Shown here one piece after another: positions 3,396 to 31,425 of a stretch of DNA of 32,000 nt. Location of the stretch: positions 541,101 through 573,100 of the forward strand of contig OZ246409.1 in assembly GCA_965231035.1 (NCBI GenBank). Reading direction: 5' to 3'. This DNA comes from an uncultured Muribaculaceae bacterium. GTDB lineage: Bacteria; Pseudomonadota; Alphaproteobacteria; Rs-D84. Every line of letters begins with the position of its first letter. Position 1 is the stretch's first letter. The position numbers and the translations under genes are program-made. The notes beneath the pieces were generated by a model, which searched no databases, was not told the origin of the DNA, and saw only the letters and a list, made by a program, of their open reading frames with translations.

Positions 3396-4469
3396 ATGAT
3401 TAATTCTCTAATTCTTACCGATTTCAGAAACCATGCATCCAGTCGCGTGAATGTTGAAAATTCAAAAAATATAATAATTACTGGACCAAATGGATCCGGG
3501 AAAACTGCAATACTGGAAGCTATATCAATGTTATCAGGTGATCGTGGTATGCGTGGTGCCACAATGTCCGAGATTGCACGTTTTGATGGTTCTGGTGGAT
3601 TTAATATTTTTGCGAATTTAGAAGATGAAACCGAGATTGCAGTTTTCTTTGCAAAAGATGATTCGAATCGTCATGCAAAGATAGATAAAGACAATTCACC
3701 GCTTTCGGAACTGGCATCCAGGCTAAGTATTGTTTGGTTAACCCCAAAAGAAGACAGGTTATTTGTGGATTCTGCATCAGACAGACGCACTTTTTTTGAC
3801 AGATTAATCGCCAGCTTTGATGCGCCACATTCTGGTCGTGTGGCCAGGTTAGGGAAATTGCTTTCGGAACGGGCTTTTGCATTAAAAAGCAGGGCGGATG
3901 ATAATTGGTTGCGGGCCTTAGAAACACAAATTGCAGGAATTTCTGTTGCTGTTGTGGCGGCACGTATCAGATATGCAGCCGAAATAAATTATTTTTTAGA
4001 AAGCAGTGCAATATCTGTATGCGGTCAGATTGAAACTTTGTTGCTAAACAGTTCGTCTGCAGATGCAGAAAAAGAATACTTGAAATATTTGTCAGAAAAC
4101 CGTGGGTTACAAGGTGACAAAATGGTAATAGACGGCGCGCATAAATCTGATTTTGGTGTTTTTAACAAAGTTTTAAACTTGCCTGTGTCACTTACCAGCA
4201 CGGGTCAGCAGAAATCAGTGCTTATTGATTTGATATTGGCACATTCAAAATTAATCAGAACCAAGACTGGTAAAACACCAATTGTTTTATTAGACGAAGC
4301 AGCGGCACATCTGGATTCAACTGCCAGAGAAAGGCTTTTTAATGAATTAGGTGCGGTCGATGCCCAGGTTTGGGCAACAGGTTTGGAACCAGAAGTTTTT
4401 AAATCTTGTAAGAACGCCGTATTTGTTTCTTGCAAGGATGGTAAAATTTTTAATATACTGGAATCATGA
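3396..4469 (+). CDS. recF: DNA replication and repair protein RecF
   Basis: N-terminus MINSLILTDFRNHASSRV...ITGPNGSGKTAILEAISMLS (RecF Walker A context). The SMC-like signature GQQKSVLIDLILA and Walker B VLLDEAAAHLD are present. Length is 357 aa. Confidence 0.9.
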   Translation: MINSLILTDFRNHASSRVNVENSKNIIITGPNGSGKTAILEAISMLSGDRGMRGATMSEIARFDGSGGFNIFANLEDETEIAVFFAKDDSNRHAKIDKDNSPLSELASRLSIVWLTPKEDRLFVDSASDRRTFFDRLIASFDAPHSGRVARLGKLLSERAFALKSRADDNWLRALETQIAGISVAVVAARIRYAAEINYFLESSAISVCGQIETLLLNSSSADAEKEYLKYLSENRGLQGDKMVIDGAHKSDFGVFNKVLNLPVSLTSTGQQKSVLIDLILAHSKLIRTKTGKTPIVLLDEAAAHLDSTARERLFNELGAVDAQVWATGLEPEVFKSCKNAVFVSCKDGKIFNILES

Positions 4470-4933
4470 AAAAAATAGATTATCAAAAATTATTAGATAA
4501 CGCTCTGAAATCTGTTGTAAAAGATGCGCTGGTTCATGCACAATTTAATGGGTTAGGTGATGGTGCGCACTTTTTTATTACTTTCAAGACACGCGATCCC
4601 GGTGTTGTACTGCCAGATTTTCTGCGTATGAGATACCCAGACATCATGACAATTGTTTTGCAGTATTCTTATAACAATCTGAATGTATCCGAAAAAGAGT
4701 TTGGCGTTCAATTGACTTTTGATGGTCGTCCGTTCTTTATTCGCGTGCCTTATTCCTCATTGATTGAATTCAAAGACCCCAGCGTGGACTTTATGTTGTC
4801 TTTTCATCCAAAAGGTTCACAATCTGCGGGAAATGATATGGAATTGCCCTTGGGCGAAGAGAAAGCAAACACAGATGATAAAAGAGTAGTAAGCTTTGAT
4901 GATTTCAGAAAGAAAAAGACAGATAAAAAATAA
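4466..4933 (+). CDS. sspB: SspB-like ClpXP adaptor (alpha-proteobacterial type)
   Basis: 155 aa. The pattern FFITFKTRDPGVVLPDFLRMRYPDIMTIVLQYSYNNLNVSEKEFGVQLTFDGRPFFIRVPYSSLIEFKDPSVDF matches the remembered SspB fold motifs, followed by an acidic/basic tail. It has an ATGA overlap with recF. Confidence 0.55.
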   Translation: MKKIDYQKLLDNALKSVVKDALVHAQFNGLGDGAHFFITFKTRDPGVVLPDFLRMRYPDIMTIVLQYSYNNLNVSEKEFGVQLTFDGRPFFIRVPYSSLIEFKDPSVDFMLSFHPKGSQSAGNDMELPLGEEKANTDDKRVVSFDDFRKKKTDKK

Positions 4934-16257: not shown

Positions 16258-16333
16258 GGATGTTTAGCTCAGTTGGTAGAGCATCTCGTTTACACCGAGA
16301 GGGTCAGGAGTTCGAGTCTCTTAACATCCACCA
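16258..16333 (+). tRNA. tRNA-Val (UAC)
   Basis: 76 nt. The acceptor stem is GGATGTT/AACATCC. The D-arm AGCTCAGTTGGTAGAGC is present. The anticodon stem is TCTCG/CGAGA with loop TTTACAC (TAC). GGAGTTCGAGTCTC forms the T-arm, and CCA is encoded. Confidence 0.93.
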
Positions 16334-16338
16334 GAATA

Positions 16339-16362
16339 ATGCCCCGTTTGGGGCATTTTATT
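16339..16362 (+). terminator. Rho-independent terminator after tRNA-Val
   Basis: ATGCCCC-GTTT-GGGGCAT followed by TTTTATT. Confidence 0.7.
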
Positions 16363-16405
16363 ATGATTGTGGTATAATTTGTTGAGTAATAAAGGTTTTA
16401 AAAAT

Positions 16406-16525
16406 ATGGGTAAAAAAACATCTAAGAAATCAGCAGGCAAACTACAAACAGCGACAAAAACATTTGAAAATACCAGACTTAGAGTTGCCGCTTCTCAAAA
16501 TAAAAGAAAAATCGTTATAAGATAA
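16406..16525 (+). CDS. Possible small, highly basic protein (39 aa)
   Basis: It translates to MGKKTSKKSAGKLQTATKTFENTRLRVAASQNKRKIVIR*. It is below the ORF-track size cutoff and has only a weak AAAGG about 10 nt upstream. It converges on the paralog-B stop 14 nt away. Coding status is unproven. Confidence 0.3.
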   Translation: MGKKTSKKSAGKLQTATKTFENTRLRVAASQNKRKIVIR

Positions 16526-16539
16526 ACAATGTTTTCTTT

Positions 16540-17319
16540 TTAACTTCTGGTTCTGGATTTTTCTATCCATTCCAGTGCCTTTTTTATAGTGTTTTCTACA
16601 TTAATAAAATGTGATTCTTTGGTTTTTGGGTTATTAAAAGCTCTATTCATCCCTATCCAAATGGTGTGATCGGGAATTATTAAAGAAAGCTCATCCAAAC
16701 TTGTTTTAATATTTTCAGGATTAAAACTATTCAAATAACCTTGGGGATAATCTGCCAAAGGGGCTTTCCAATCAGTCTTATTTAAAAAACCGTTATAACA
16801 GGAAGACATTACAGAAAATTTTGCACCAATTTGATTTAATTCTGCTATTATTTCTCTTCTAATATTCTCAGAATCATATGTAAAAATAAATTCTTGTCCA
16901 GGTTTGTTTCTGATGTTTCTTGCAATTTTTTCAGGGTAAATATTTCTGGCCTTTTCATTATTTTTATCATTTTTTATAGAGAAACAGTAATTTATCTGGC
17001 ATCTTTTGATAACAAAATTACCAGTTTTTTTATTTTTAAGGCTGAACCATCTTGATAAATCAGAGTTTATAGAGCCTATGCAGAATGCAGAGCAAGAATC
17101 CTTTTCAAGATATAGAGAAATGTTAGGAGAATTTTCGATATTTGCAGATATATTTAATAATCCTTCAATCCAATCAAACCATTTTTGATTTGATCTTAAA
17201 AAAAACGAGCTTACAGGAATTGCTATTTCTACTTTATTTGAAAGGTTTGCAAGCTTAAATATATATTCATAATTTAAATTTATTGATCCAACATCAACCG
17301 TTATATAACGCAAATTCAT
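16540..17319 (-). CDS. Hypothetical protein, paralog B of a tandem pair; possibly a degenerate TrpF/PRAI-like TIM barrel
   Basis: 259 aa. It shares MNLRYIT, KVEIA, VIKR-Q, PEK-A, EF-F-Y, KFS, DWK-P and PQGY with the upstream gene. NSFNPENI resembles the TrpF GGLNPENV motif. It has an ATGA overlap with paralog A and is AT-rich. Confidence 0.7.
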   Translation of the reverse strand: MNLRYITVDVGSINLNYEYIFKLANLSNKVEIAIPVSSFFLRSNQKWFDWIEGLLNISANIENSPNISLYLEKDSCSAFCIGSINSDLSRWFSLKNKKTGNFVIKRCQINYCFSIKNDKNNEKARNIYPEKIARNIRNKPGQEFIFTYDSENIRREIIAELNQIGAKFSVMSSCYNGFLNKTDWKAPLADYPQGYLNSFNPENIKTSLDELSLIIPDHTIWIGMNRAFNNPKTKESHFINVENTIKKALEWIEKSRTRS

Positions 17320-18056
17320 TTGTTTTGGGCCTTTTGTTTATCCAGCCATAATAACACATTTCTTATAAATTCTTCAGCAAAATGAAAATTAAATTCTTGA
17401 GTCTTTTCGTCCATCAGTAACTTGTGGGCTTCTACCCAAGTATCATGATTTTGTGGAACAAGATTTTTGATTCTGCCAAGATTAAAGTCAATATTACCTG
17501 CACATAATTTCCCAGTGTAACCTTGGGGACAATTATTAAAAATGGGTTGTTTCCAATCAAATTGAGCCTTGTAAGTCAGTGAAAATTTTACACCTGTATT
17601 GTTCAGTCTGGAAAGTTTATTTTTTAAATTATCATGATATAAAAATACAAATTCTCGATCCGGATAATTGGAAATAATTTTTGCAACTTTTTCTGGATCA
17701 AAATTTTCTTGTCTGCCGTATAAATCAAACTGCCATCTTTTAATTACAGGCTTATGTGTTTTTATGTTTTTTATATCAAACCAATCGTATAAATCAGCAT
17801 CAATAACACCATTTTTACAAAATTTTACGGCCCAATCTCCAACTATATGCATTGCCAAGTTATCAGCATTTTCTATACAAGAAAGAATATCAATGGTTTC
17901 CGAAAACCATTCATTCCCGGGCATTTTATATTTCATAATTGATGAATCGCCAGGAAAGGCAATTTCGACTTTGTCGGATAATTTTAAAAGATTTATGATT
18001 TTTTCAACAGAAGTAAACTCTCGAATACCAGAGCATGTTATATAGCGCAGGTTCAT
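17316..18056 (-). CDS. Hypothetical protein, paralog A of a tandem pair; possibly a TrpF/PRAI-like TIM barrel
   Basis: 246 aa. RYITCSGI (compare TrpF KICGIT), AMHIVGD (compare QLHG), FDWKQP (compare FDW) and PQGYTGKLCAGNIDFNL resemble TrpF motifs. It starts 3 nt after the rlmN stop, and its AAAGG RBS lies inside the rlmN 3' end. Confidence 0.7.
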   Translation of the reverse strand: MNLRYITCSGIREFTSVEKIINLLKLSDKVEIAFPGDSSIMKYKMPGNEWFSETIDILSCIENADNLAMHIVGDWAVKFCKNGVIDADLYDWFDIKNIKTHKPVIKRWQFDLYGRQENFDPEKVAKIISNYPDREFVFLYHDNLKNKLSRLNNTGVKFSLTYKAQFDWKQPIFNNCPQGYTGKLCAGNIDFNLGRIKNLVPQNHDTWVEAHKLLMDEKTQEFNFHFAEEFIRNVLLWLDKQKAQNK

Positions 18057-18059
18057 TAA

Positions 18060-19133
18060 CTAACCTTTTTGGTTTAATCGCAGTTGCCCACAGGCACTGC
18101 CGATATCTTGACCTCGCTCTCTCCGAATTCTGGTGTGAATACCGTTTTTAATCAATATATCCTGGAATCTGTGTACCGCATTCCCAGAAGGTGACTTAAA
18201 ATCACGTTCATCAACCGCATTCCATGGTATTAAATTTACCATACAGTTCTTGGTTGTCAATAATTTTGACAATTCTTCGGCATTTTCGACCGAATCGTTT
18301 GTCCCAGCCAACAATATATATTCAATCATCAATTGACGGTTATTTTTGGCCACAAATTCAAACGCAGCGTCTATAACCTGTTCCAGATTATACTTTGTGT
18401 TTATAGGCATTAAACGTTCACGCAGGGCATCGTTTGGTGCGTGTAATGATATTGCCAGATTAACTGGTTGCCCCCATTCAATCAATCTTTGTATTCCAGG
18501 AACAATACCGCATGTTGAAACAGTAATCTTTCGCCAGCCAATTCCCAAATCTTGGTGCAGTCTTTCCATAAAGCCAATTGTGTTTTCTGTATTTTGTAAA
18601 GGTTCGCCAGTGCCCATAATAACCACATGTGAAACATCGTTATTATTTGGGTCACCGTTGGGTTTTACGTTTTTATTGTCGTTATCGCCACGAAGTGCCC
18701 AACCGGCGGTTAAAACCTGGGCAAACATTTCATTTACGGTCAAATTGCGTTTTAATCCCAGTAATGTGCTGGCGCAGAACTTACATCCCATTGCACAGCC
18801 TGCCTGTGAGCTGACACAGACACTGTTCCCATAGCTGGTTCGCATTAAAACGGATTCTATTTGTTCTCCGTCTGCCATTTCCAGCAAAAATTTAGTGGTT
18901 TGACCATCAGATGATTCAAGCTTTTTAACAATCTTGCAGGGCAGGGTTGTTGCAATCTTATCCAAGTCGTTACGCAGATCTTCTGGAAGGTTTTTCATAA
19001 CAGAAAAATCAGGTGCCCCCCTTTCCAACCATTCATTGATTTGTTTTGCACGAAATTTTGGCTGACTGATGGATACAATAAATTGTTCCAGTTGAGCAGG
19101 GGTCATATTGAAAAGAATTTGCTTATCAATCAT
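18060..19133 (-). CDS. rlmN: Dual-specificity 23S rRNA/tRNA adenine-C2 methyltransferase RlmN (radical SAM)
   Basis: FRAKQINEWL is at the N-terminus. The radical-SAM cluster motif is GCAMGCKFCAS (CxxxCxxC), followed by VIMGTGEPL and the C-terminal GSACGQL Cys. 357 aa. Confidence 0.92.
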   Translation of the reverse strand: MIDKQILFNMTPAQLEQFIVSISQPKFRAKQINEWLERGAPDFSVMKNLPEDLRNDLDKIATTLPCKIVKKLESSDGQTTKFLLEMADGEQIESVLMRTSYGNSVCVSSQAGCAMGCKFCASTLLGLKRNLTVNEMFAQVLTAGWALRGDNDNKNVKPNGDPNNNDVSHVVIMGTGEPLQNTENTIGFMERLHQDLGIGWRKITVSTCGIVPGIQRLIEWGQPVNLAISLHAPNDALRERLMPINTKYNLEQVIDAAFEFVAKNNRQLMIEYILLAGTNDSVENAEELSKLLTTKNCMVNLIPWNAVDERDFKSPSGNAVHRFQDILIKNGIHTRIRRERGQDIGSACGQLRLNQKG

Positions 19134-19966
19134 ATTTTATAATTTTTATCATTTATAATAATAACAGCCTTGCGACGTAATTGTTTTAACTGTTGATCGG
19201 CTGTGAACATTGCTTTTTTATAAATAGCATTTTGTTTTATAATGTCATCCAGTTTTCCATATTCTTTGGTCTTTTTAATATCACATACCAAGAATACTGA
19301 ATTATCCTGGGGTTTTGACCAAGTCAACTTTGGCAAGCCCACAACAGCTTCGCGAACATCTTCGGATAGTTCATATTGTTGAGCTGTAAATTTTTGTGGT
19401 GCACCACCAAATTTGCGTGCAATATCCATTGCGTCATCACAGCTTTTTGGTTTTGTTAATTTTGCAGAAACATCGGATGGAATATCAATTAATCTGACCA
19501 GTGTCATTTCCAATGGTAAACCTTTGGCACGTTCCAAGTCCTGTTTTTGTTGATCTATTTCACTGTCAGAAACGTCTATGGTTGGAACAATTGTTCTGGC
19601 TACGACCATTTGCCACGCGATGTTCGCATTGACTGCTGTTTTTGCCATTGCAAGTTCTGTTGCTGTCATATCACCCAAATTCATAGAATTTAATTCTTTT
19701 TTAACGTCCTGGTCTGAAGGTTTTGCATTAAAGTTTGCTGCATAATCCAGTTTTACATAATCATCAATAATGTTTTGAAATGCCTTTCTGCGATTATCTG
19801 TGGACGTATCACCTTGCTTTGCCATTAATTTAGTTCTGGCGGTTATGTCTGTGTCTGTTACAGGTCTGCCACCAATAGTTGCAACAACAGATGCAGCAAA
19901 TGACGAAGTTATAACCGAAACAGAAAAAATAACCGTTGATAAAAGTTTTAATTTTACATTCTTCAT
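19130..19966 (-). CDS. SurA-like periplasmic chaperone with a degenerate parvulin-like C-terminal half
   Basis: 278 aa with a signal peptide (…VITSSFAAS). The N-terminus is SurA-like (VATIGGRPVTDTDITARTKL). It sits directly downstream of lptD as in the conserved lptD-surA arrangement, with AGGGA as RBS. Confidence 0.6.
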   Translation of the reverse strand: MKNVKLKLLSTVIFSVSVITSSFAASVVATIGGRPVTDTDITARTKLMAKQGDTSTDNRRKAFQNIIDDYVKLDYAANFNAKPSDQDVKKELNSMNLGDMTATELAMAKTAVNANIAWQMVVARTIVPTIDVSDSEIDQQKQDLERAKGLPLEMTLVRLIDIPSDVSAKLTKPKSCDDAMDIARKFGGAPQKFTAQQYELSEDVREAVVGLPKLTWSKPQDNSVFLVCDIKKTKEYGKLDDIIKQNAIYKKAMFTADQQLKQLRRKAVIIINDKNYKI

Positions 19967-19980
19967 ATTTAATCCCTTTT

Positions 19981-21996
19981 TTACAATCTCATTCCACCAA
20001 TGTTTAACCCAAATCGGAACTGTATAGTTGTGTTTCCGACATAGTCTTCTTTGACCGCGTTATCGCGGCGATATTCCAAAGACAAGAAATAACAAGGGTG
20101 AGTGTAAACTATTCCACCTGTGTGACGTTGGAATTTAGAATCTGTAATGTTATAAATAGCGTTAAACTTTATTCCTACACGATCTGTCATTTGAATACCA
20201 AAACCACCAGATACTTCGTTTATATTTTTATCCATTGTGTGCGCGTCCAAGAACTGTGCGGCCCAAATATGACCAACGTCAAAATAATTTCTGGATGAGC
20301 CAATTCTGGCAGAATTTTCTATGTGTCGTAACGAGAAAGTATCTTGGGCCAAACGGAATCTGGTAGAAAACTGCAACCAATCTGTATTTTCATATCCAAT
20401 TCTGCCGACATAATCAGATTGCCCGTTGTGAAATCCACTGTTTGGGTCTGTATCAATACGCTTGGTAAAGTCATAAGTTTGTCCCAAAAACGTTTCAATG
20501 TTTTGTCCATTGTTATCAAAAGTTGCAAATCTGACACCGTAATCGCTGAATGTTCCATTTTCCCACAAATCTAATCCAGAAAAACGATTGTCAGAAAATA
20601 GTGTCGCATCTGACAATAATGCACCCGCAGAATCATTGTTTAAAGCAAATGCAGAATCATCCAAATTTTTCATAGTTGTTATTCTGGCGCGTGGTTCTAT
20701 GATTTGTGTCCAATCCTCGCCACTGCGTGCCAAAGGCAAACCCCATTCCAAATAACCACTTGGTAAAAATCTTGATTTTACACCGGTAAAATTTGTTCCA
20801 TCAATCATTTCTGTGTTACTGAAATTGTAAACATCATATCTGGCAGATAAATTAGCAGTAACACGATTTCCACCCCACATTGTCCATGGGGATACTATGC
20901 TGGATTCACCAATAACACGTTGGCTGGATACGCCAGACCCAGACACCCCAAGAACGTCAGTATTCAAACGAAGATATGTTTGTTCAAATAAAGGGTCTGT
21001 TTGATAAACACCACGAATGTTTGGTAAAATATCACCATTCGGCGCTAAATACTTTCCACTGGCAGTACGAAGTTCTTGAAACACATGTGTATCCGCAACC
21101 GCATATCCAGAATGTCCAAAAACTTCCACCTTGCCACCTGAATCCAAGTACGGTTGGTCACGATAGAATCCATATTTTTGCAAATAAGTTTTATCAGATG
21201 CACGTTGTAAAAATAATATTGTTCTGACATGGTCACCCATTTCAATAACATCTTTATTAAAGGCATGCCAACGGTTTAACCCTTCTTTGTTATTTGTATA
21301 AGATCCAGAAGTTCTAAATTCAGAATAATTACCATTCAGGCGATGTTCCACCTGAAATAGCGGATTTTCGTTAGTTAGATACGAAAACTTTAATGTTGCA
21401 TCGTGTTTTTCCGAAAAAGAAAGATAAAGAGGAATATTAAATTGTGTTCCCATATTATTTGTAGAATTTAAATCGGGTATTAACAAACCACTTTTATGTT
21501 TAACAGTTGGGTCTGGCATATCAAAAAAAGGAAGCCATGCAACAGGAACTTTGTAAACCCAAAACACAGGGTAATCAAAAGTTATTATTTTATTGTTGGT
21601 ACTGTGGGTCATCATAGACGAAGATATTTCCCAAGCATTTCCAAAGGAATCGCATTTATAGCAGGCTGTGAAAGTTGCATTTTCTGAAATTGTATCACCA
21701 TCTTTGCGAGTAACTTTTTCTGCTGTGACGTGAACATTATCATCCAACCAAATTTCTATATTATTACCAGATGTATCTTGACCTTTGTTTGAAATATAAG
21801 AATCTGTCAAAGTCATCTTTTGTCCAGACGTATTTTTAATCTCGGTCTGACCAGTTGTTTTTATAGCTTCGGATTTTATATTATATTCAATTTTTGGTGC
21901 AGAAATTGTTTTTGCAGATTCTATATCAACCAACTGCCCAGCAATTGATGCGCTGGGAATAAGAAAAAATAAAAATGCGGGTTTAATCAATTTCAT
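19981..21996 (-). CDS. lptD: LPS-assembly outer membrane protein LptD
   Basis: 671 aa with a signal peptide. The N-terminus is OstA-like, followed by a long beta-barrel with SGLLIPD, aromatic-rich strands and a beta-barrel C-terminus. It is flanked by lptG-like and surA-like genes. Confidence 0.85.
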   Translation of the reverse strand: MKLIKPAFLFFLIPSASIAGQLVDIESAKTISAPKIEYNIKSEAIKTTGQTEIKNTSGQKMTLTDSYISNKGQDTSGNNIEIWLDDNVHVTAEKVTRKDGDTISENATFTACYKCDSFGNAWEISSSMMTHSTNNKIITFDYPVFWVYKVPVAWLPFFDMPDPTVKHKSGLLIPDLNSTNNMGTQFNIPLYLSFSEKHDATLKFSYLTNENPLFQVEHRLNGNYSEFRTSGSYTNNKEGLNRWHAFNKDVIEMGDHVRTILFLQRASDKTYLQKYGFYRDQPYLDSGGKVEVFGHSGYAVADTHVFQELRTASGKYLAPNGDILPNIRGVYQTDPLFEQTYLRLNTDVLGVSGSGVSSQRVIGESSIVSPWTMWGGNRVTANLSARYDVYNFSNTEMIDGTNFTGVKSRFLPSGYLEWGLPLARSGEDWTQIIEPRARITTMKNLDDSAFALNNDSAGALLSDATLFSDNRFSGLDLWENGTFSDYGVRFATFDNNGQNIETFLGQTYDFTKRIDTDPNSGFHNGQSDYVGRIGYENTDWLQFSTRFRLAQDTFSLRHIENSARIGSSRNYFDVGHIWAAQFLDAHTMDKNINEVSGGFGIQMTDRVGIKFNAIYNITDSKFQRHTGGIVYTHPCYFLSLEYRRDNAVKEDYVGNTTIQFRFGLNIGGMRL

Positions 21997-23075
21997 TTTT
22001 TAAACAAGGCAAACAGTATTCCAGATAAAACAATTAATTGAGCTAACATCAATATTCCAAGTTGTGGTAAAGTTTCAACCATATTTGATGCAGACATAAA
22101 AAACGCCGAAACAATAGCCATTACAGCCACAGCAATAACTGGAGCAAAACTGGTTCTGCGACGCAACAAAGAAGTTCTAAGTAAAATAACAAGACATAGT
22201 GCAGCCAGGATAACATTCATCAATGGGCTTAACAGTCTTGTATAAATCTCGGTCAGGGTAAGTTTTTGTTGTTTCTTTAAAAGTTCATCTGAGGTTTTGA
22301 AAGATCTTTGATCCCAAGCATTTTTCAAAAGTTGTGTTGTTGGTATTCGTCTGACTTTGAATACAGATTCACCAACCCTGTCAGCAATATTTAAATCCAT
22401 ATCAAAACTATCAAAAGTTCCAATTGTTAAATTATCATCTCTGGATTGTAATGAACCATTATTCATAACAATAGAAAGGCCACGGGCAGTGGAAATTAAT
22501 TTTCCTTTTTCTGCAAATATTGTCCTTTCGGCACGTGGACTACGTGAATCATAAAGAATTATTTGTGATAAATCGTAACCAGATACTTTATCCACATAAA
22601 CGACTAAACCTTCGGCCATTTGGTTAAATGCTGATTCTTTTAATTTCATATGTGCCAAGCCGTAACGTAATTCCCATTGAGTATCGTAAAACTTGGCCTG
22701 GGTTACTGGGACAGCCCAAATATTTAAACCCCAATTTATAATTGTTAAAAACAAAACCAAAACCATAGCAGGTTTTGCAACTTGACGTGGGGACAGGCCT
22801 GATGCCGCTAAAACTGTAATTTCATTATCGCTTATCAATTTGTTGTAAACAAACATAATCGCAATAAAAGTAACAAAAGGTATTATGATTGAAACAATAA
22901 AAGGAATCATCAGAACTGTCAGACCAATAAAACTGTATACTTCTACACCATAATTTATAAGGAACTTCATCAAGGACATGATTTGCAACATCCATGCAAG
23001 ACCGGTCAAAACCAAAAGCAACATTGTAAATATTGTAATCAGTTGCTTTGTAAAGTAGCGTTTGATAATTTTCAT
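21993..23075 (-). CDS. lptG: LptF/LptG-family LPS export permease (position suggests LptG)
   Basis: 360 aa. MKIIKRYFTKQLITIF is the typical YjgP/YjgQ N-terminus. It has 3+3 TM helices with a large periplasmic loop and an ATGA overlap with lptD. No Shine-Dalgarno sequence precedes the ATG. Confidence 0.8.
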   Translation of the reverse strand: MKIIKRYFTKQLITIFTMLLLVLTGLAWMLQIMSLMKFLINYGVEVYSFIGLTVLMIPFIVSIIIPFVTFIAIMFVYNKLISDNEITVLAASGLSPRQVAKPAMVLVLFLTIINWGLNIWAVPVTQAKFYDTQWELRYGLAHMKLKESAFNQMAEGLVVYVDKVSGYDLSQIILYDSRSPRAERTIFAEKGKLISTARGLSIVMNNGSLQSRDDNLTIGTFDSFDMDLNIADRVGESVFKVRRIPTTQLLKNAWDQRSFKTSDELLKKQQKLTLTEIYTRLLSPLMNVILAALCLVILLRTSLLRRRTSFAPVIAVAVMAIVSAFFMSASNMVETLPQLGILMLAQLIVLSGILFALFKK

Positions 23076-28015: not shown

Positions 28016-28750
28016 TTAATCAATCTTTTTTCCAGTTGAAGCGTCAAAGGTTTCATCTTCGACAGTAATTGTTTTGTCTTTATAAACCGGAGCTGCTTGG
28101 TCTTGAACCTTTTTACCCCAATAAATATCACCATTGGATGTATTTATAGCATACAGTTTATTGTTTGTTCCAACAACAAAAGCAAAATTATCAACAATTA
28201 TAAATGGTTCGGCAACACCCAAATTTATACACCATTTTTTATGGCCACCAGTTTTATCCAATTTGCAAAATGCGTCGCCCAGGCCACCAACATAAACCCC
28301 AACGCCCTTTACAATAACTGGTGCAACAATATCTAATACACTGGCACCACCCAACATGTTATTTTCACGATAAACATCCGTGACCCACTCAATATTTCTG
28401 GTTTTTGCATTAACCTTGACCATTTCGCCTGTTGTTAACCCTGCATAAACAAATTCATCGTCGCATACAGGTTTTTGATCGCTGGTCACAGAATTGCTGG
28501 TTGGGAATCCGCTGAATATTTTTTTATCGCCATTCCAGATAACATTTGAAGAATCTTGGGTATATGGACAATCAATAATCTTGGTTTCTGGCAGGTTCAT
28601 TGGTAAGTTTTGAACTTCTTTATTCAAAATAACCAGTGCAGCCCCAGGAAATATGGATTCGCGCTGTCCAGGTAATATAGGATCGTGTTTTGAGCAAGCG
28701 GACAATGAAACTGGGATTAAAAATAAGGTTAATATTTTTAATTTGTTCAT
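28016..28750 (-). CDS. PQQ-like beta-propeller lipoprotein, BamB-like but short
   Basis: 244 aa with a lipoprotein signal and lipobox (LIPVSLSAC). Repeated motifs are MVKVNAKTRNIEW, FCKLDKTGGHKKW and LYAINTSNGDIYW. It lies downstream of a yfgM-like gene, as bamB does in many Proteobacteria. Confidence 0.6.
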   Translation of the reverse strand: MNKLKILTLFLIPVSLSACSKHDPILPGQRESIFPGAALVILNKEVQNLPMNLPETKIIDCPYTQDSSNVIWNGDKKIFSGFPTSNSVTSDQKPVCDDEFVYAGLTTGEMVKVNAKTRNIEWVTDVYRENNMLGGASVLDIVAPVIVKGVGVYVGGLGDAFCKLDKTGGHKKWCINLGVAEPFIIVDNFAFVVGTNNKLYAINTSNGDIYWGKKVQDQAAPVYKDKTITVEDETFDASTGKKID

Positions 28751-28760
28751 GTTGAAAACC

Positions 28761-29411
28761 TTATTTCAAAGTTTGGGCAGTTGCAGATATTACAGCAGGT
28801 GCGTCTTTTTCACTGATAATTTTATCCAGCCATTTATTAGCTGCGTCTTTGTTACCTTCGGATAAGTATTTTTCAGCAACCAATAACATACTGTTGTAAT
28901 AAAAAGGAGAGCTGGAAGTATTTAAATCAGACAAGAATTTTTCCAATTCTGAACCAGTCATTTTATCGCCCTTGATCCCAGCCAGGTGCAATTTTGCTAA
29001 ATCACGAAAATCGCGAGAGCTTCCATCTTTTGCCAAAGTTTCCAATTTTGAAACATCACCATCAGACATAAATGATTGGAACATTGCCAAATCAGCGGTT
29101 GCCCCAGATGAATTTTTGGACAATGCGGCCAAAGCACTACCATCAGCATTTTCGATTGCTATTTCATAACCTTCGGCAGTTGCCAAGCGTGCAGCTTTAT
29201 TATTGTGGCGAACAATCTGAATTCCAACGGTAATTACAACAATAGCAATAGCAAAAGAAATTAAAATCTTGGAATACTTTTTCAAAAAAGCCATTGTTTT
29301 TTCATTGTTTACATCTTCCCAGACTTCACGATACAGCGCTTCTTCGGCATAATCTTCTTGGGATTTCTTGGGTTCTGGTAATTTATTTTTGTTTTTGAAC
29401 AGTTTGGTCAT
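28761..29411 (-). CDS. YfgM-like membrane-anchored TPR-like protein
   Basis: 216 aa with a single N-terminal TM anchor (ILISFAIAIVVITVGIQIV) followed by a helical-repeat domain. The call also rests on its position upstream of the bamB-like gene. Confidence 0.5.
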   Translation of the reverse strand: MTKLFKNKNKLPEPKKSQEDYAEEALYREVWEDVNNEKTMAFLKKYSKILISFAIAIVVITVGIQIVRHNNKAARLATAEGYEIAIENADGSALAALSKNSSGATADLAMFQSFMSDGDVSKLETLAKDGSSRDFRDLAKLHLAGIKGDKMTGSELEKFLSDLNTSSSPFYYNSMLLVAEKYLSEGNKDAANKWLDKIISEKDAPAVISATAQTLK

Positions 29412-29462: not shown

Positions 29463-30419
29463 ATGAAAAAGCAAATCAAGAACCCTTTACCAGTCGCAAA
29501 GCAAGGAAGTGCATCGACAAGTTTAATGGCTATCCGGGGGGTATCAGATGAATCTGGTCTGGAACAATATATTCAGACTATTCAAAAGTTCCCAATACTT
29601 TCAGCCGAACAAGAATACGAATACGCAACAACCTGGCGATCTAAACAAGATATGACAGCAGCCGAGAAGCTGGTTGCCAGCCATTTGCGTTTGGTTGTTT
29701 CGGTTGCCTATGATTTTAAAAATTATGGAATTCCAGTTTCAGAGCTTATTGCCAGTGGAAATGTTGGTCTGATGCAGGCTTTACAAAAATTTGACCCAGA
29801 AAAAGGGTTCAGGTTTTCAACCTATGCTATGTTTTGGATCAAGGCCGAGATTTATGAAACAATTTTGAATAACTGGTCAGTTGTCAGAATTGGTACTTCG
29901 GCCAATCAGAAACGCGTTTTCTTTAATCTGGCGCGTGCAAAAAAAGCACTGGGGATTATGGATAATAATTTGTCCGATGACCAGACCAAGCAAATTGCAG
30001 AGTTCTTACAAGTCCCAGAAAATGATGTAACACGTATGGCGACCAGAATCAGCGCACGCGATTTATCATTAAATGCACCAGTTGGTAATGATGATTCCAG
30101 AGATGCACTTTCTAATCTGGCCGATACATCTGATGGCATCGAAGATAATATTGAAAGATTGGAATTCCGTCGTCGTGGATATGAAATGCTGCGCAGGCAT
30201 TTATCAGAATTACCAGAACGCGATCGTGAAATTCTGCATGCACGCAGATTACAAGATCCGGCAGCAACACTGGAAGTTTTGGCACAGAAATACAAAATAT
30301 CACGCGAAAGGGTTCGTCAAATCGAAGAACGCGCATACGCAAAATTACGTGATGCAATTTTAAAAGAGGAAGAATACATACCAGCAAAAAAAGGTGAGGT
30401 TATTGATGAAGCCATATAA
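29463..30419 (+). CDS. rpoH: RNA polymerase sigma-32 (heat-shock sigma factor RpoH)
   Basis: Region 2 motifs are LVASHLRLVVSVAYDFKNYG, GNVGLMQALQKFDPEKGFRFSTYAMFWIKAEI. The RpoH-box-like QKRVFFNLARAKK is present. Region 4 is TLEVLAQKYKISRERVRQIEERAYAKLR. Confidence 0.9.
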   Translation: MKKQIKNPLPVAKQGSASTSLMAIRGVSDESGLEQYIQTIQKFPILSAEQEYEYATTWRSKQDMTAAEKLVASHLRLVVSVAYDFKNYGIPVSELIASGNVGLMQALQKFDPEKGFRFSTYAMFWIKAEIYETILNNWSVVRIGTSANQKRVFFNLARAKKALGIMDNNLSDDQTKQIAEFLQVPENDVTRMATRISARDLSLNAPVGNDDSRDALSNLADTSDGIEDNIERLEFRRRGYEMLRRHLSELPERDREILHARRLQDPAATLEVLAQKYKISRERVRQIEERAYAKLRDAILKEEEYIPAKKGEVIDEAI

Positions 30420-31425
30420 AATTTATATGTACTTTTTATTGTTAGGTTTGTGGTCTTTGCCTGCATCCGCGTATGAACATAATTTTGGCAGATATGGGTT
30501 CAAGCTTACTGGTTATGGAACTGTTGGTGCAATTGAACCAGATTTCAAAAAAGCTTATTTTATGGATGATTGGCTGGTTCGAACACAGATCAATTATGCT
30601 TTGAAATCAAATATAACAGTGGGGTTTGTTTATTCAATCGACGAACTGGCGGTATACCAAGATAAGTATTCCCGTGATACTTTTTTATTTATCGAAGATG
30701 CAAACAGGGGCCGTATAGAACTGGGTATGACCGATTCAATTGCAACCAAACTGGGGGTTGGATTACCAGATGTCGGCGGATTAAGAATAAATGATAATCC
30801 AATATTTTATAAAAGATTGGAACCAACAGGACCGGTTATTTCAAATACTACAATGACCAGCGGTCGGTACGATTTGCGTGCGAACTTTGTTTCTGTTCCA
30901 ACGCGTCCTTGGCAATTTGGGGCATCTGTTGCTGGATTATCACCAAAATATAATTATGCCACGGATGTTGGGGTAAAATATCGTGATCCGAACGGTAAAA
31001 CAAAAAATGCATTTTCGATGGGTGCGTCCTTTATAGATTCGCCAGAAAACTTTCAAACCGAAGTTTTTGCACCATCAGTCACAGCAGATTGGCGTGCACA
31101 AATATCAACAGGATTTAATTTGCAATACAACAGCTGGATATGGGGAATATCGTTACGTGGAATTTACGACAGAAACCCGATTGGCGTTCCTGGGGACGGC
31201 TTGATTGCAGGAACAGGGATCAGTTATGACCTTTTGAATTATACAGTGTCAGCATCATATATTTTATCTGATACAGGTATATGGAATGATGCACCTAATT
31301 ATATATCAAATACTGGGGTGTTATCTTTCAGATATAAATACAGCGAAGATGTTGACGGTTGGATTTCAACCGGATTATCTGCTGGGTTGCCATTTATGTC
31401 TGGTGGAATCAGAATGAAGTTTTAA
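30406..31425 (+). CDS. Outer-membrane beta-barrel protein (porin-like), family not recognised
   Basis: It has a signal peptide (MKPYKIYMYFLLLGLWSLPASA/YE), alternating beta-strand pattern and a C-terminal ...GGIRMKF (terminal Phe). The start was set at ATG 30406, which has AAGGTGAGG 7 nt upstream; the track's GTG is at 30394. It overlaps rpoH by 14 nt. Confidence 0.6.
   Translation: MKPYKIYMYFLLLGLWSLPASAYEHNFGRYGFKLTGYGTVGAIEPDFKKAYFMDDWLVRTQINYALKSNITVGFVYSIDELAVYQDKYSRDTFLFIEDANRGRIELGMTDSIATKLGVGLPDVGGLRINDNPIFYKRLEPTGPVISNTTMTSGRYDLRANFVSVPTRPWQFGASVAGLSPKYNYATDVGVKYRDPNGKTKNAFSMGASFIDSPENFQTEVFAPSVTADWRAQISTGFNLQYNSWIWGISLRGIYDRNPIGVPGDGLIAGTGISYDLLNYTVSASYILSDTGIWNDAPNYISNTGVLSFRYKYSEDVDGWISTGLSAGLPFMSGGIRMKF

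Follow-up and report, generated by a model that had tools for sequence, protein, structure and literature searches.

Two adjacent minus-strand genes, here called A and B, follow rlmN in a 32,000-nucleotide stretch of the genome of an uncultured Muribaculaceae bacterium (GTDB lineage Alphaproteobacteria, Rs-D84; assembly GCA_965231035.1, contig OZ246409.1, positions 541,101 to 573,100), referred to below as the window. Both belong to a large unnamed family of (βα)8-barrel proteins for which there is no curated model. As judged by profile comparison, the family is a remote homolog of phosphoribosylanthranilate isomerase (PRAI, or TrpF), a distant sister among the phosphate-binding triosephosphate isomerase (TIM) barrels. 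What is new is the family; its fold and superfamily are known, and the window copies are a degenerate offshoot. With much of the family's active-site signature gone, A and B probably lack the ancestral reaction of the family, and we put at about even the chance that they have been retained in a derived role, either binding or regulatory or catalytic on an altered substrate.

17316..18056, minus strand: paralog A, 246 aa, (βα)8 barrel, start MNLRYIT
16540..17319, minus strand: paralog B, 259 aa, same barrel fold as A, start MNLRYIT

Two paralogs of an unnamed barrel family

An earlier note on this DNA had described two adjacent open reading frames (ORFs) of these lengths, both beginning MNLRYIT, with shared collinear motifs, and both observations hold. 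In the BLASTP alignment, A and B are 33% identical over 261 columns (E=2e-39), and every motif named in the note (KVEIA, VIKR.Q, PEK.A, EF.F.Y, KFS, DWK.P, and PQGY) appears in order. The two are true paralogs, tandem duplicates. The AlphaFold models have eight beta/alpha units each (A, pLDDT 92.1 and pTM 0.89; B, pLDDT 88.9 and pTM 0.88). Foldseek searches against the Protein Data Bank (PDB) returned TIM barrels only, in line with the barrel fold suggested in the note, but weakly (E of 1e-5 to 1e-3, TM score of 0.4 to 0.56, and identity of ~10%). The matches were a mix of triosephosphate isomerase, DUF1341/KDPG-type aldolases, KDO8P synthase, and PRAI (5lhf, 1dl3, and 1lbm), and no close structural relative of A or B has been solved. 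Neither protein matched any Pfam or NCBIfam model even at E≤10, including PF00697 and the NCBIfam PRAI models (PRK01222 equivalogs), neither matched a PDB sequence, and no fold match in BFVD scored better than E=1e-3.

Relatives are nevertheless numerous. A aligns to the canonical family members of loci L003, L006, and L009 with E values of 1e-48 to 1e-57, and B with 1e-27 to 1e-37. An initial word-indexed search gave just eight clusters; an exhaustive HMMER search with a profile of the close clade gave 2,360 representative clusters (50% identity) at E≤1e-3, of which 1,035 also passed E≤1e-10. The family is carried by 203 loci in GTDB species genomes, with hosts that include Saccharibacteria, Nealsonbacteria, Paceibacterota, Bacteroidota, Geobacteraceae, many gut and rumen alphaproteobacteria such as "Ca. 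Enterousia," and cultured Paraburkholderia, Bradyrhizobium, Pararhizobium, and Novimethylophilus. It is also carried by 211 IMG/VR viral contigs, many of them 250 to 570 kb long, and by three GenBank entries for "huge phages," unannotated and 634 to 735 kb long (LR756501, LR756503, and LR745206). No member was found in cultured-phage records, and a PHROG scan of 129 members had zero matches. Where public annotation is present, the proteins are "hypothetical," and a look through the literature for a PRAI-like or TrpF-like family that already has a name turned up nothing relevant. This sizeable, unmodeled family has a clear active-site signature and can be linked to TrpF, which makes it a tractable target for finding functions in the nucleotide or cofactor metabolism of phages and symbionts.

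Relationship to TrpF

We scanned 129 family members singly against Pfam. PF00697, the PRAI family, was matched by 37 of them at E≤0.1 (best, 3.4e-7), and any other Pfam family by at most two. One member, P0140, scores 26.0 bits and so clears the PF00697 gathering score of 22.7 bits. The top PDB profile match of the family is the Pyrococcus furiosus PRAI 4aaj, which at E=0.2 is not significant alone; its alignment has collinear motifs at beta6 (LyDssGeGk against LLDTGAGSGK), beta7 (GYaGGLspeNv against VAGGLNAENV), and beta8 (wIDaetkl against GVDVSSGVE). We then used a diverse PRAI profile, built from Escherichia coli TrpC(F) (NC_000913), enterobacterial homologs, and PDB entries 1lbm, 1v5x, 4wui, 4aaj, and 7etx. 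Two family alignments (A3 and A4) matched this profile in hhalign with probabilities of 90.8% and 91.5% (E=1.2e-6 and 8.7e-7) over 188 to 192 columns. Poorer PRAI queries, which the diverse profile supersedes, gave 4 to 6% (the single E. coli sequence, on the GGL motif only) and 45 to 65% (an enterobacterial-only profile). The TrpF likeness proposed in the earlier note thus stands at the level of the superfamily and of the family as a whole, but does not extend to A and B themselves, which have no match to the PRAI models.

The catalytic residues of TrpF can be placed on this alignment. The general acid of T. maritima TrpF is Asp126, at the end of beta6, and the general base is Cys7, at the end of beta1. 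The family's beta6 Asp, present in 91% of members, aligns to Asp126; A has Lys163 in this column and B has Ser173. Cys7 falls opposite Ser9, which precedes the conserved Gly10, although local confidence of the hhalign alignment is low there. The earlier note had given A a Cys at the position of the TrpF catalytic base, and this is not supported: Cys8 seems to fall in a different column and is specific to one clade. Position 8 is Cys in A and Val in B; Cys occurs there only in the alphaproteobacterial clade ("ITCSG/D"), and elsewhere the residue is Ile, Val, Leu, Met, or Phe, including in the larger "VT-x-TGADD" clade.

Judged by these comparisons, A and B are not TrpF, and their genes should not carry a trpF annotation. 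The idea that one or both are a genuine TrpF for tryptophan synthesis draws only on the remote PRAI homology and on the TrpF fold being known as promiscuous (PMC4161248). It is close to refuted by the missing matches to PF00697 and the PRAI equivalogs, the absent equivalent of the catalytic Asp, and the degraded phosphate-binding glycines. There are also no trp genes among those of the 32-kb window, as the earlier note had said, or in the syntenic loci described below.

Family signature and its erosion in A and B

In a broad alignment of the family, with the numbering of A, the near-invariant residues are Glu31, Trp50, His70, Arg107, Gln109, Asn111, Asp163, Gly179, Tyr180, Gly182, Asn188, and Asp209. 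Thr7, Gly10, Ser165, the GxG loop, Gly183, and Glu211 are conserved at 80 to 88%, and Ser/Thr9 and Trp207 also count toward the signature of membership. The signature is essentially the same in members from phages and the candidate phyla radiation (P0098, P0110, and P0140) and in "Enterousia"-type loci (L003, L006, L009, L052, L059, and L085), with the exception of L003_3, which has Asn at position 163.

A keeps Thr7, Ser9, Gly10, Glu31, Trp50, His70, Arg107, Gln109, Gly179, Tyr180, Gly182, Asn188, and Trp207. It departs in having Lys163 for Asp, Gln165 for Ser, a 7-residue deletion in place of the GxG loop, GKL for GGL, and Glu209/His211 for Asp/Glu. B has Val8, Val10 for Gly, Tyr70 for His, Ser173 for the beta6 Asp, NSF for GGL, and Gly223/Asn225 for Asp/Glu. 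At the beta7 turn the family consensus is GYAGGLSPEN, against which both copies, GYTGKLCAGN in A and GYLNSFNPEN in B, are degraded, as the earlier note had noticed of their glycine-rich phosphate-binding motifs. At beta8 the family has W-I-D-x-E in place of the S-S-G of PRAI; A has WVEAH and B has WIGMN.

The closest relatives share these losses. A neighbor-joining tree groups A with the genes that L001 and L008 each have in single copy, to which it is orthologous (48% identity), and B with P0013, its nearest relative (36% identity); the two groups are sisters. The states at three sites in this subclade are as follows.

Position 163 (Asp in the family): A, Lys; L008, Asn; L001, Asp; B, Ser; P0013, Asp
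Positions 182 and 183 (Gly-Gly in the family): A, Gly-Lys; L008, Gly-Gly; L001, Gly-Gly; B, Asn-Ser; P0013, Ile-Pro
Positions 209 and 211 (Asp and Glu in the family): A, Glu and His; L008, Glu and Phe; L001, Gln and Tyr; B, Gly and Asn; P0013, Glu and Gly

Ser165, the GxG loop, and the Asp209/Glu211 pair are gone in all five members (A, B, L001, L008, and P0013), and the canonical site was therefore lost before A and B were duplicated. Position 70 is His in A, Tyr in B, and Asn in P0013. The replacements differ from lineage to lineage, which looks like drift after release of an old constraint rather than a newly fixed catalytic set. The barrel core (Glu31, Trp50, Arg107, Gln109, Tyr180, Asn188, and Trp207) is kept throughout the subclade.

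The earlier note had read the pair as an enzyme with a pseudoenzyme. In that case A would be an active isomerase or lyase on a new substrate, using Cys8 or other residues, and B an inactive regulatory or structural partner. A does keep more of the signature than B (His70, Gly10, Gly182, and a conservative Glu209), an A-type gene is the only copy in L001 and L008, and the ATGA overlap of the two genes would suit equimolar co-production. Such a split is, however, too generous to A, which has neither the Asp aligned to the TrpF general acid nor Ser165, the GxG loop, the second Gly of the GGL turn, or the Asp209/Glu211 pair. Its orthologs vary at the very positions that a new catalytic set would fix (Lys, Asn, or Asp at 163; Glu/His, Glu/Phe, or Gln/Tyr at 209/211), most of the family has a hydrophobic residue in the Cys8 column, which in the low-confidence N-terminal part of the alignment does not face TrpF Cys7, and A-type proteins evolve far faster than their neighbors. 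We consider the split unlikely. A class-I-aldolase-like Schiff-base role for Lys163 of A was also considered and was rejected because of the Asp of L001 and the Asn of L008 at this position.

Locus and history

A and B stand at the end of a run of minus-strand genes that includes lptG, lptD, a surA-like gene, and rlmN.

21993-23075, minus strand: lptG, upstream operon, named from Pfam annotation of orthologs
19981-21996, minus strand: lptD, upstream operon, named from Pfam annotation of orthologs
19130-19966, minus strand: surA-like gene, short, 278 aa
18060..19133, minus strand: rlmN, 357 aa, immediately upstream of A
18057..18068, minus strand: rlmN-A junction, read from the sequence, with AAAGG (18068-18064), rlmN stop TAG (18062-18060), and a 3-nt spacer before the A start ATG (18056-18054)
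17316..17319, minus strand: A-B overlap ATGA, read from the sequence, shared between the TGA stop codon of A and the ATG start codon of B
16258-16333, plus strand: tRNA-Val(TAC), convergent with the operon end, 206 nt past the B stop

The upstream genes (19130..23075) are closely spaced on the same strand as rlmN, A, and B. The rlmN orthologs in L001 to L009 have the PF21016 RlmN_N and Radical_SAM domains. The surA-like gene has no Pfam match on record in any syntenic locus (L001 and L003 to L009), so "SurA" is a name by position alone. The junctions are as the earlier note had read them, and the Shine-Dalgarno-like AAAGG for A lies within the last rlmN codons, 7 nt 5' of the A ATG. An AAGG is also present 10 nt 5' of the B start, at 17333-17330. 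These tight or overlapping stop-start junctions suggest that A and B are translationally coupled to rlmN.

The arrangement is old. The order lptG-lptD-surA-rlmN-family gene occurs in L001 and L003 to L009 and in 9 of 80 named genome loci (L052, L056, L059, L067 to L069, and L085 to L087). In all, at least 14 related loci have a family gene behind rlmN, at a distance of -4 to +2 nt in the relatives and of -4 to +3 nt with the window included. The family gene is fixed at the 3' end of this operon in a lineage of gut-type alphaproteobacteria, and the pair has not been appended, as the earlier note had put it, specifically in this genome; the group as a whole inherited the arrangement of rlmN with a family gene behind it. 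Copy number ranges from 1 to 3 among these relatives, and in L003 (7243-10308), L009 (5173-8257), and L086, two copies follow rlmN and a third lies past an OmpA-family gene on the opposite strand. An A-then-B order is also found in L172, where P0013 stands behind an A-type gene; the 64 nt upstream of P0013 encode ...FIKNVLEWNSKQNIRK*, an A-type C terminus. The duplication therefore predates the window organism.

The note was right that a tRNA-Val lies nearby and that the pair is more AT-rich than its surroundings (GC content of 0.27 to 0.30, against 0.36 to 0.42 for the neighbors). The same tRNA-Val(TAC) is also found 3' of the family gene or genes in L001 and L003 and is therefore ancestral synteny. 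GC content at third codon positions is 0.25 in A and 0.22 in B, matching surA (0.26) and lptD (0.28), so the low GC content follows from a composition rich in Lys, Asn, Ile, and Phe rather than from foreign DNA. Recent horizontal acquisition at the tRNA was rejected, given the tRNA and gene order kept in relatives and these third-position values.

The family genes have diverged much faster than their neighbors.

Window against L001 and L008: operon neighbors 74 to 84% identical, A-type proteins 48%
B against P0013: family proteins 36% identical
L003 against L009, in the canonical clade: neighbors 82 to 87% identical, family proteins 75%, 70%, and 52%

One explanation for this, for the loss of signature residues, and for the AT-rich composition would be that A and B are functionless remnants on the way to becoming pseudogenes. 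We give it little credence. In 1,000 shuffles of the 1,517-nt region (30% GC), the longest stop-free run had a mean of 72 codons and never passed 137, so the observed 246 and 259 are not due to chance. The subclade genes are intact across four lineages (the window, L001, L008, and L172) whose operon neighbors have diverged by 16 to 26% at the protein level, both proteins have confident fold predictions, and the barrel core residues and the coupled starts are kept. Intact genes, core residues, and confident folds despite fast evolution argue for retention under changed constraint rather than decay.

A second strain of the same organism (L173/L174) differs from the window in a mosaic pattern. 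Its synonymous divergence from the window is 0.14 to 0.22 in lptD, surA, ybaB, and pnp, 0.017 in rlmN, 0.007 in A (one synonymous change), and 0 in B (one nonsynonymous change, V241A). Positions 16600-18890, which hold both paralogs and the last ~830 nt of rlmN, have two differences in 2.3 kb, and the flanks have 10 to 14 per 250 bp. This low-divergence tract, which covers exactly the pair, looks like a recent recombination or sweep; an assembly chimera in the metagenome is the alternative. The region 3' of the tRNA-Val (16334-16401) is hypervariable between the strains, with 34 differences in ~70 nt, and includes a terminator-like hairpin at 16338-16357, between the tRNA and B. Between the tRNA and the B end, convergent with B, there is also a small plus-strand ORF (16406-16525) whose 39-aa product has many Lys and Arg residues (MGKKTSKKSAGKLQTATKTFENTRLRVAASQNKRKIVIR). 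Gene calling picks it up in the second strain as well (L173, 4032-4151), pN/pS being ~0.22, and it is not found in L001, where the tRNA comes 31 nt after the family gene.

Elsewhere in the window, whose genes are housekeeping only and include no GCH-II, fol, rib, or que gene, a few ORFs lack a firm assignment. Those at 4466-4933 (plus strand, 155 aa), 28761-29411 (minus strand, 216 aa), and 30394-31425 (plus strand, 343 aa) went unmatched in NCBIfam at E≤1e-5, and that at 28016-28750 (minus strand, 244 aa) has only a partial match to BamB, which at 42 bits against 285 is far under the cutoff.

Neighbors and possible function of the canonical members

Neighbors were surveyed at 80 genome loci and at 80 viral loci from IMG/VR (L091 to L170). 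The sole recurrent set is the rlmN, lptD, surA, and lptG of one clade, and pooled Pfam scans of the neighbors found no family in more than 2 of 86 (genomes) or 4 of 150 (viral). Viral neighbors lean toward RNA, tRNA, and nucleotide functions (TyrRS, Thg1, RNA ligase, RlaP, and HAD_SAK_2, together with nucleoside deoxyribosyltransferase-like, cpYpsA SLOG, PfkB, and dCMP deaminase proteins). TyrRS is among the four nearest genes in four viral loci, possibly of related phages.

A few members are joined to genes that suggest a chemistry. L037 (5696-7753) encodes a single 686-aa protein with GTP_CH_N, a part like GTP cyclohydrolase II (GCH-II), and the barrel, followed by LOG-fold and deaminase-fold proteins. 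L038 (2439-5517) has a GCH-II-like gene, a barrel gene, and a GTP_CH_N plus GCH-II gene standing consecutively, and a gene of the cytidine-deaminase fold lies opposite. In P0103 (576 aa), the barrel is fused to a NadR-type NMNAT/ribosylnicotinamide kinase. These fusion and adjacency partners, of the GCH-II and NadR types, all make or handle N-ribosyl 5'-phosphates. A precedent exists in chlamydiae, whose TrpF turns the GCH-II product into dihydroneopterin monophosphate and so bypasses FolE and FolQ (Adams et al. 2014, PMC4161248).

From these partners and this precedent, the canonical members are probably Amadori-type isomerases, or a close variant, acting on phosphoribosyl-amine substrates. 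They would bind a ligand of the 5-phosphoribosyl type, with its phosphate at the GGL turn of beta7, and would carry out an Amadori-type acid/base isomerization of the sugar by way of the beta6 Asp in the column of TrpF Asp126.

Reading of A and B

Under our preferred reading, A and B would no longer carry out the family's reaction but would be kept by selection for a derived role, that is, for ligand binding or regulation or for catalysis on another, probably nonphosphorylated, substrate. B would be the more degenerate and faster-evolving partner, possibly pairing with A, and both would be co-produced with RlmN through translational coupling. A bolder version gives the parent family and the pair specific roles. 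The family would be a phage-spread N-(5-phosphoribosyl)amine (Amadori-type) isomerase, working with GCH-II in some lineages for FolE-less pterin synthesis, and A-B would be a conserved heterodimeric pseudoenzyme that senses or sequesters a ribosyl metabolite, or has a similar noncatalytic role, co-expressed with RlmN and the genes for lipopolysaccharide transport. This fuller version seems to us rather improbable.

The position behind rlmN could instead mean that the pair works with RlmN or in RNA or tRNA metabolism, for example, by processing a nucleoside or by-product of RNA methylation. The close rlmN junctions at 14 or more loci and the phage neighbors (TyrRS in four cases, Thg1, RNA ligase, RlaP, and the HAD domain found in RNA-repair systems) are consistent with this. 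However, the rlmN linkage is limited to one alphaproteobacterial lineage, elsewhere there is no recurring neighbor, the four TyrRS cases may come from related phages, and conserved gene order can be mere inheritance. PRAI-type barrels, moreover, act on small molecules. We find a role with RlmN or RNA quite improbable and return to a derived role of the pair, of whatever kind, as the preferred reading.

Several points weigh against that reading and against the chemistry suggested for the parent family. Loss of a signature is not proof that catalysis has been lost, and new catalytic residues are possible, such as Lys163 in A, although neither L001 (Asp) nor L008 (Asn) has it. Per-residue confidence is low across the N-terminal half of the alignment to PRAI. 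Selection on the pair is not readily gauged from substitution rates: the second strain is near-identical across rlmN-A-B and the remoter orthologs are saturated, so that dN/dS is uninformative. The genomic context is also thin, with no BLAST cluster of neighbors present in more than 9 of 80 genome loci or 6 of 80 viral loci. When E. coli FolE, QueC/D/E, and RibA/D/E were used as seeds against all ORFs of the 160 loci, RibA-like genes were found in only two (L037 and L038), plus one QueC, and the reverse test, starting from a GCH-II protein, found a family gene in none of 80 loci. Since, in addition, no FolE, QueD, QueE, RibD, or RibE was found near family genes in the 160 loci, the pterin bypass stays a lead for the canonical members.

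Comparison with known systems

The nearest named family is PRAI/TrpF (PF00697; EC 5.3.1.24; 1LBM and 4AAJ). The unnamed family shares with it the (βα)8 fold, profile homology over the whole barrel, and the order of the C-terminal motifs, LxD..GxG..W, GGLxPxN, and xD..E/SG. It differs in being 40 to 50 residues longer, in its identity of only ~10% to solved PRAIs (TM score of 0.5 to 0.6), in having neither the conserved catalytic Cys nor a trp context, and in a signature of its own (T-x-[ST]-G at beta1, Glu31, His70, R-x-Q-x-N at beta4, and W-I-D-x-E at beta8). A and B stand further off, failing PF00697 and lacking the beta6 Asp and the glycine turn. Other phosphate-binding barrels, namely, HisA/PriA (ProFAR isomerase), triosephosphate isomerase, the KDPG/DUF1341 aldolases, KDO8P synthase, and HPS, resemble the family in general fold and in C-terminal phosphate-binding architecture but give no sequence-profile signal; PRAI alone was matched repeatedly.

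The chlamydial TrpF and GCH-II (RibA) bypass (PMC4161248) offers a precedent for the canonical members, with a PRAI-type barrel that isomerizes an N-(5-phosphoribosyl)amino-pyrimidine from GCH-II, and L037 and L038 have their barrels with GCH-II-like genes. The chlamydial enzyme is, in contrast, a bona fide PF00697 protein, and the unnamed family is rarely linked to GCH-II. The window is further removed, with no GCH-II, folate, or riboflavin gene and with the canonical residues gone from A and B.

A and B themselves can be compared with pseudoenzyme paralogs retained beside or in place of active enzymes, a general phenomenon. They differ in that the window locus holds no partner enzyme bearing the canonical residues, and their inactivity is read from the sequence. 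The likeness lies in an intact fold with a conserved core, lost residues for catalysis and ligand grip, fast evolution, and retention across species. A TIM-barrel enzyme lineage that lost its catalytic signature and was nevertheless duplicated and long retained is useful for studying how pseudoenzymes originate.

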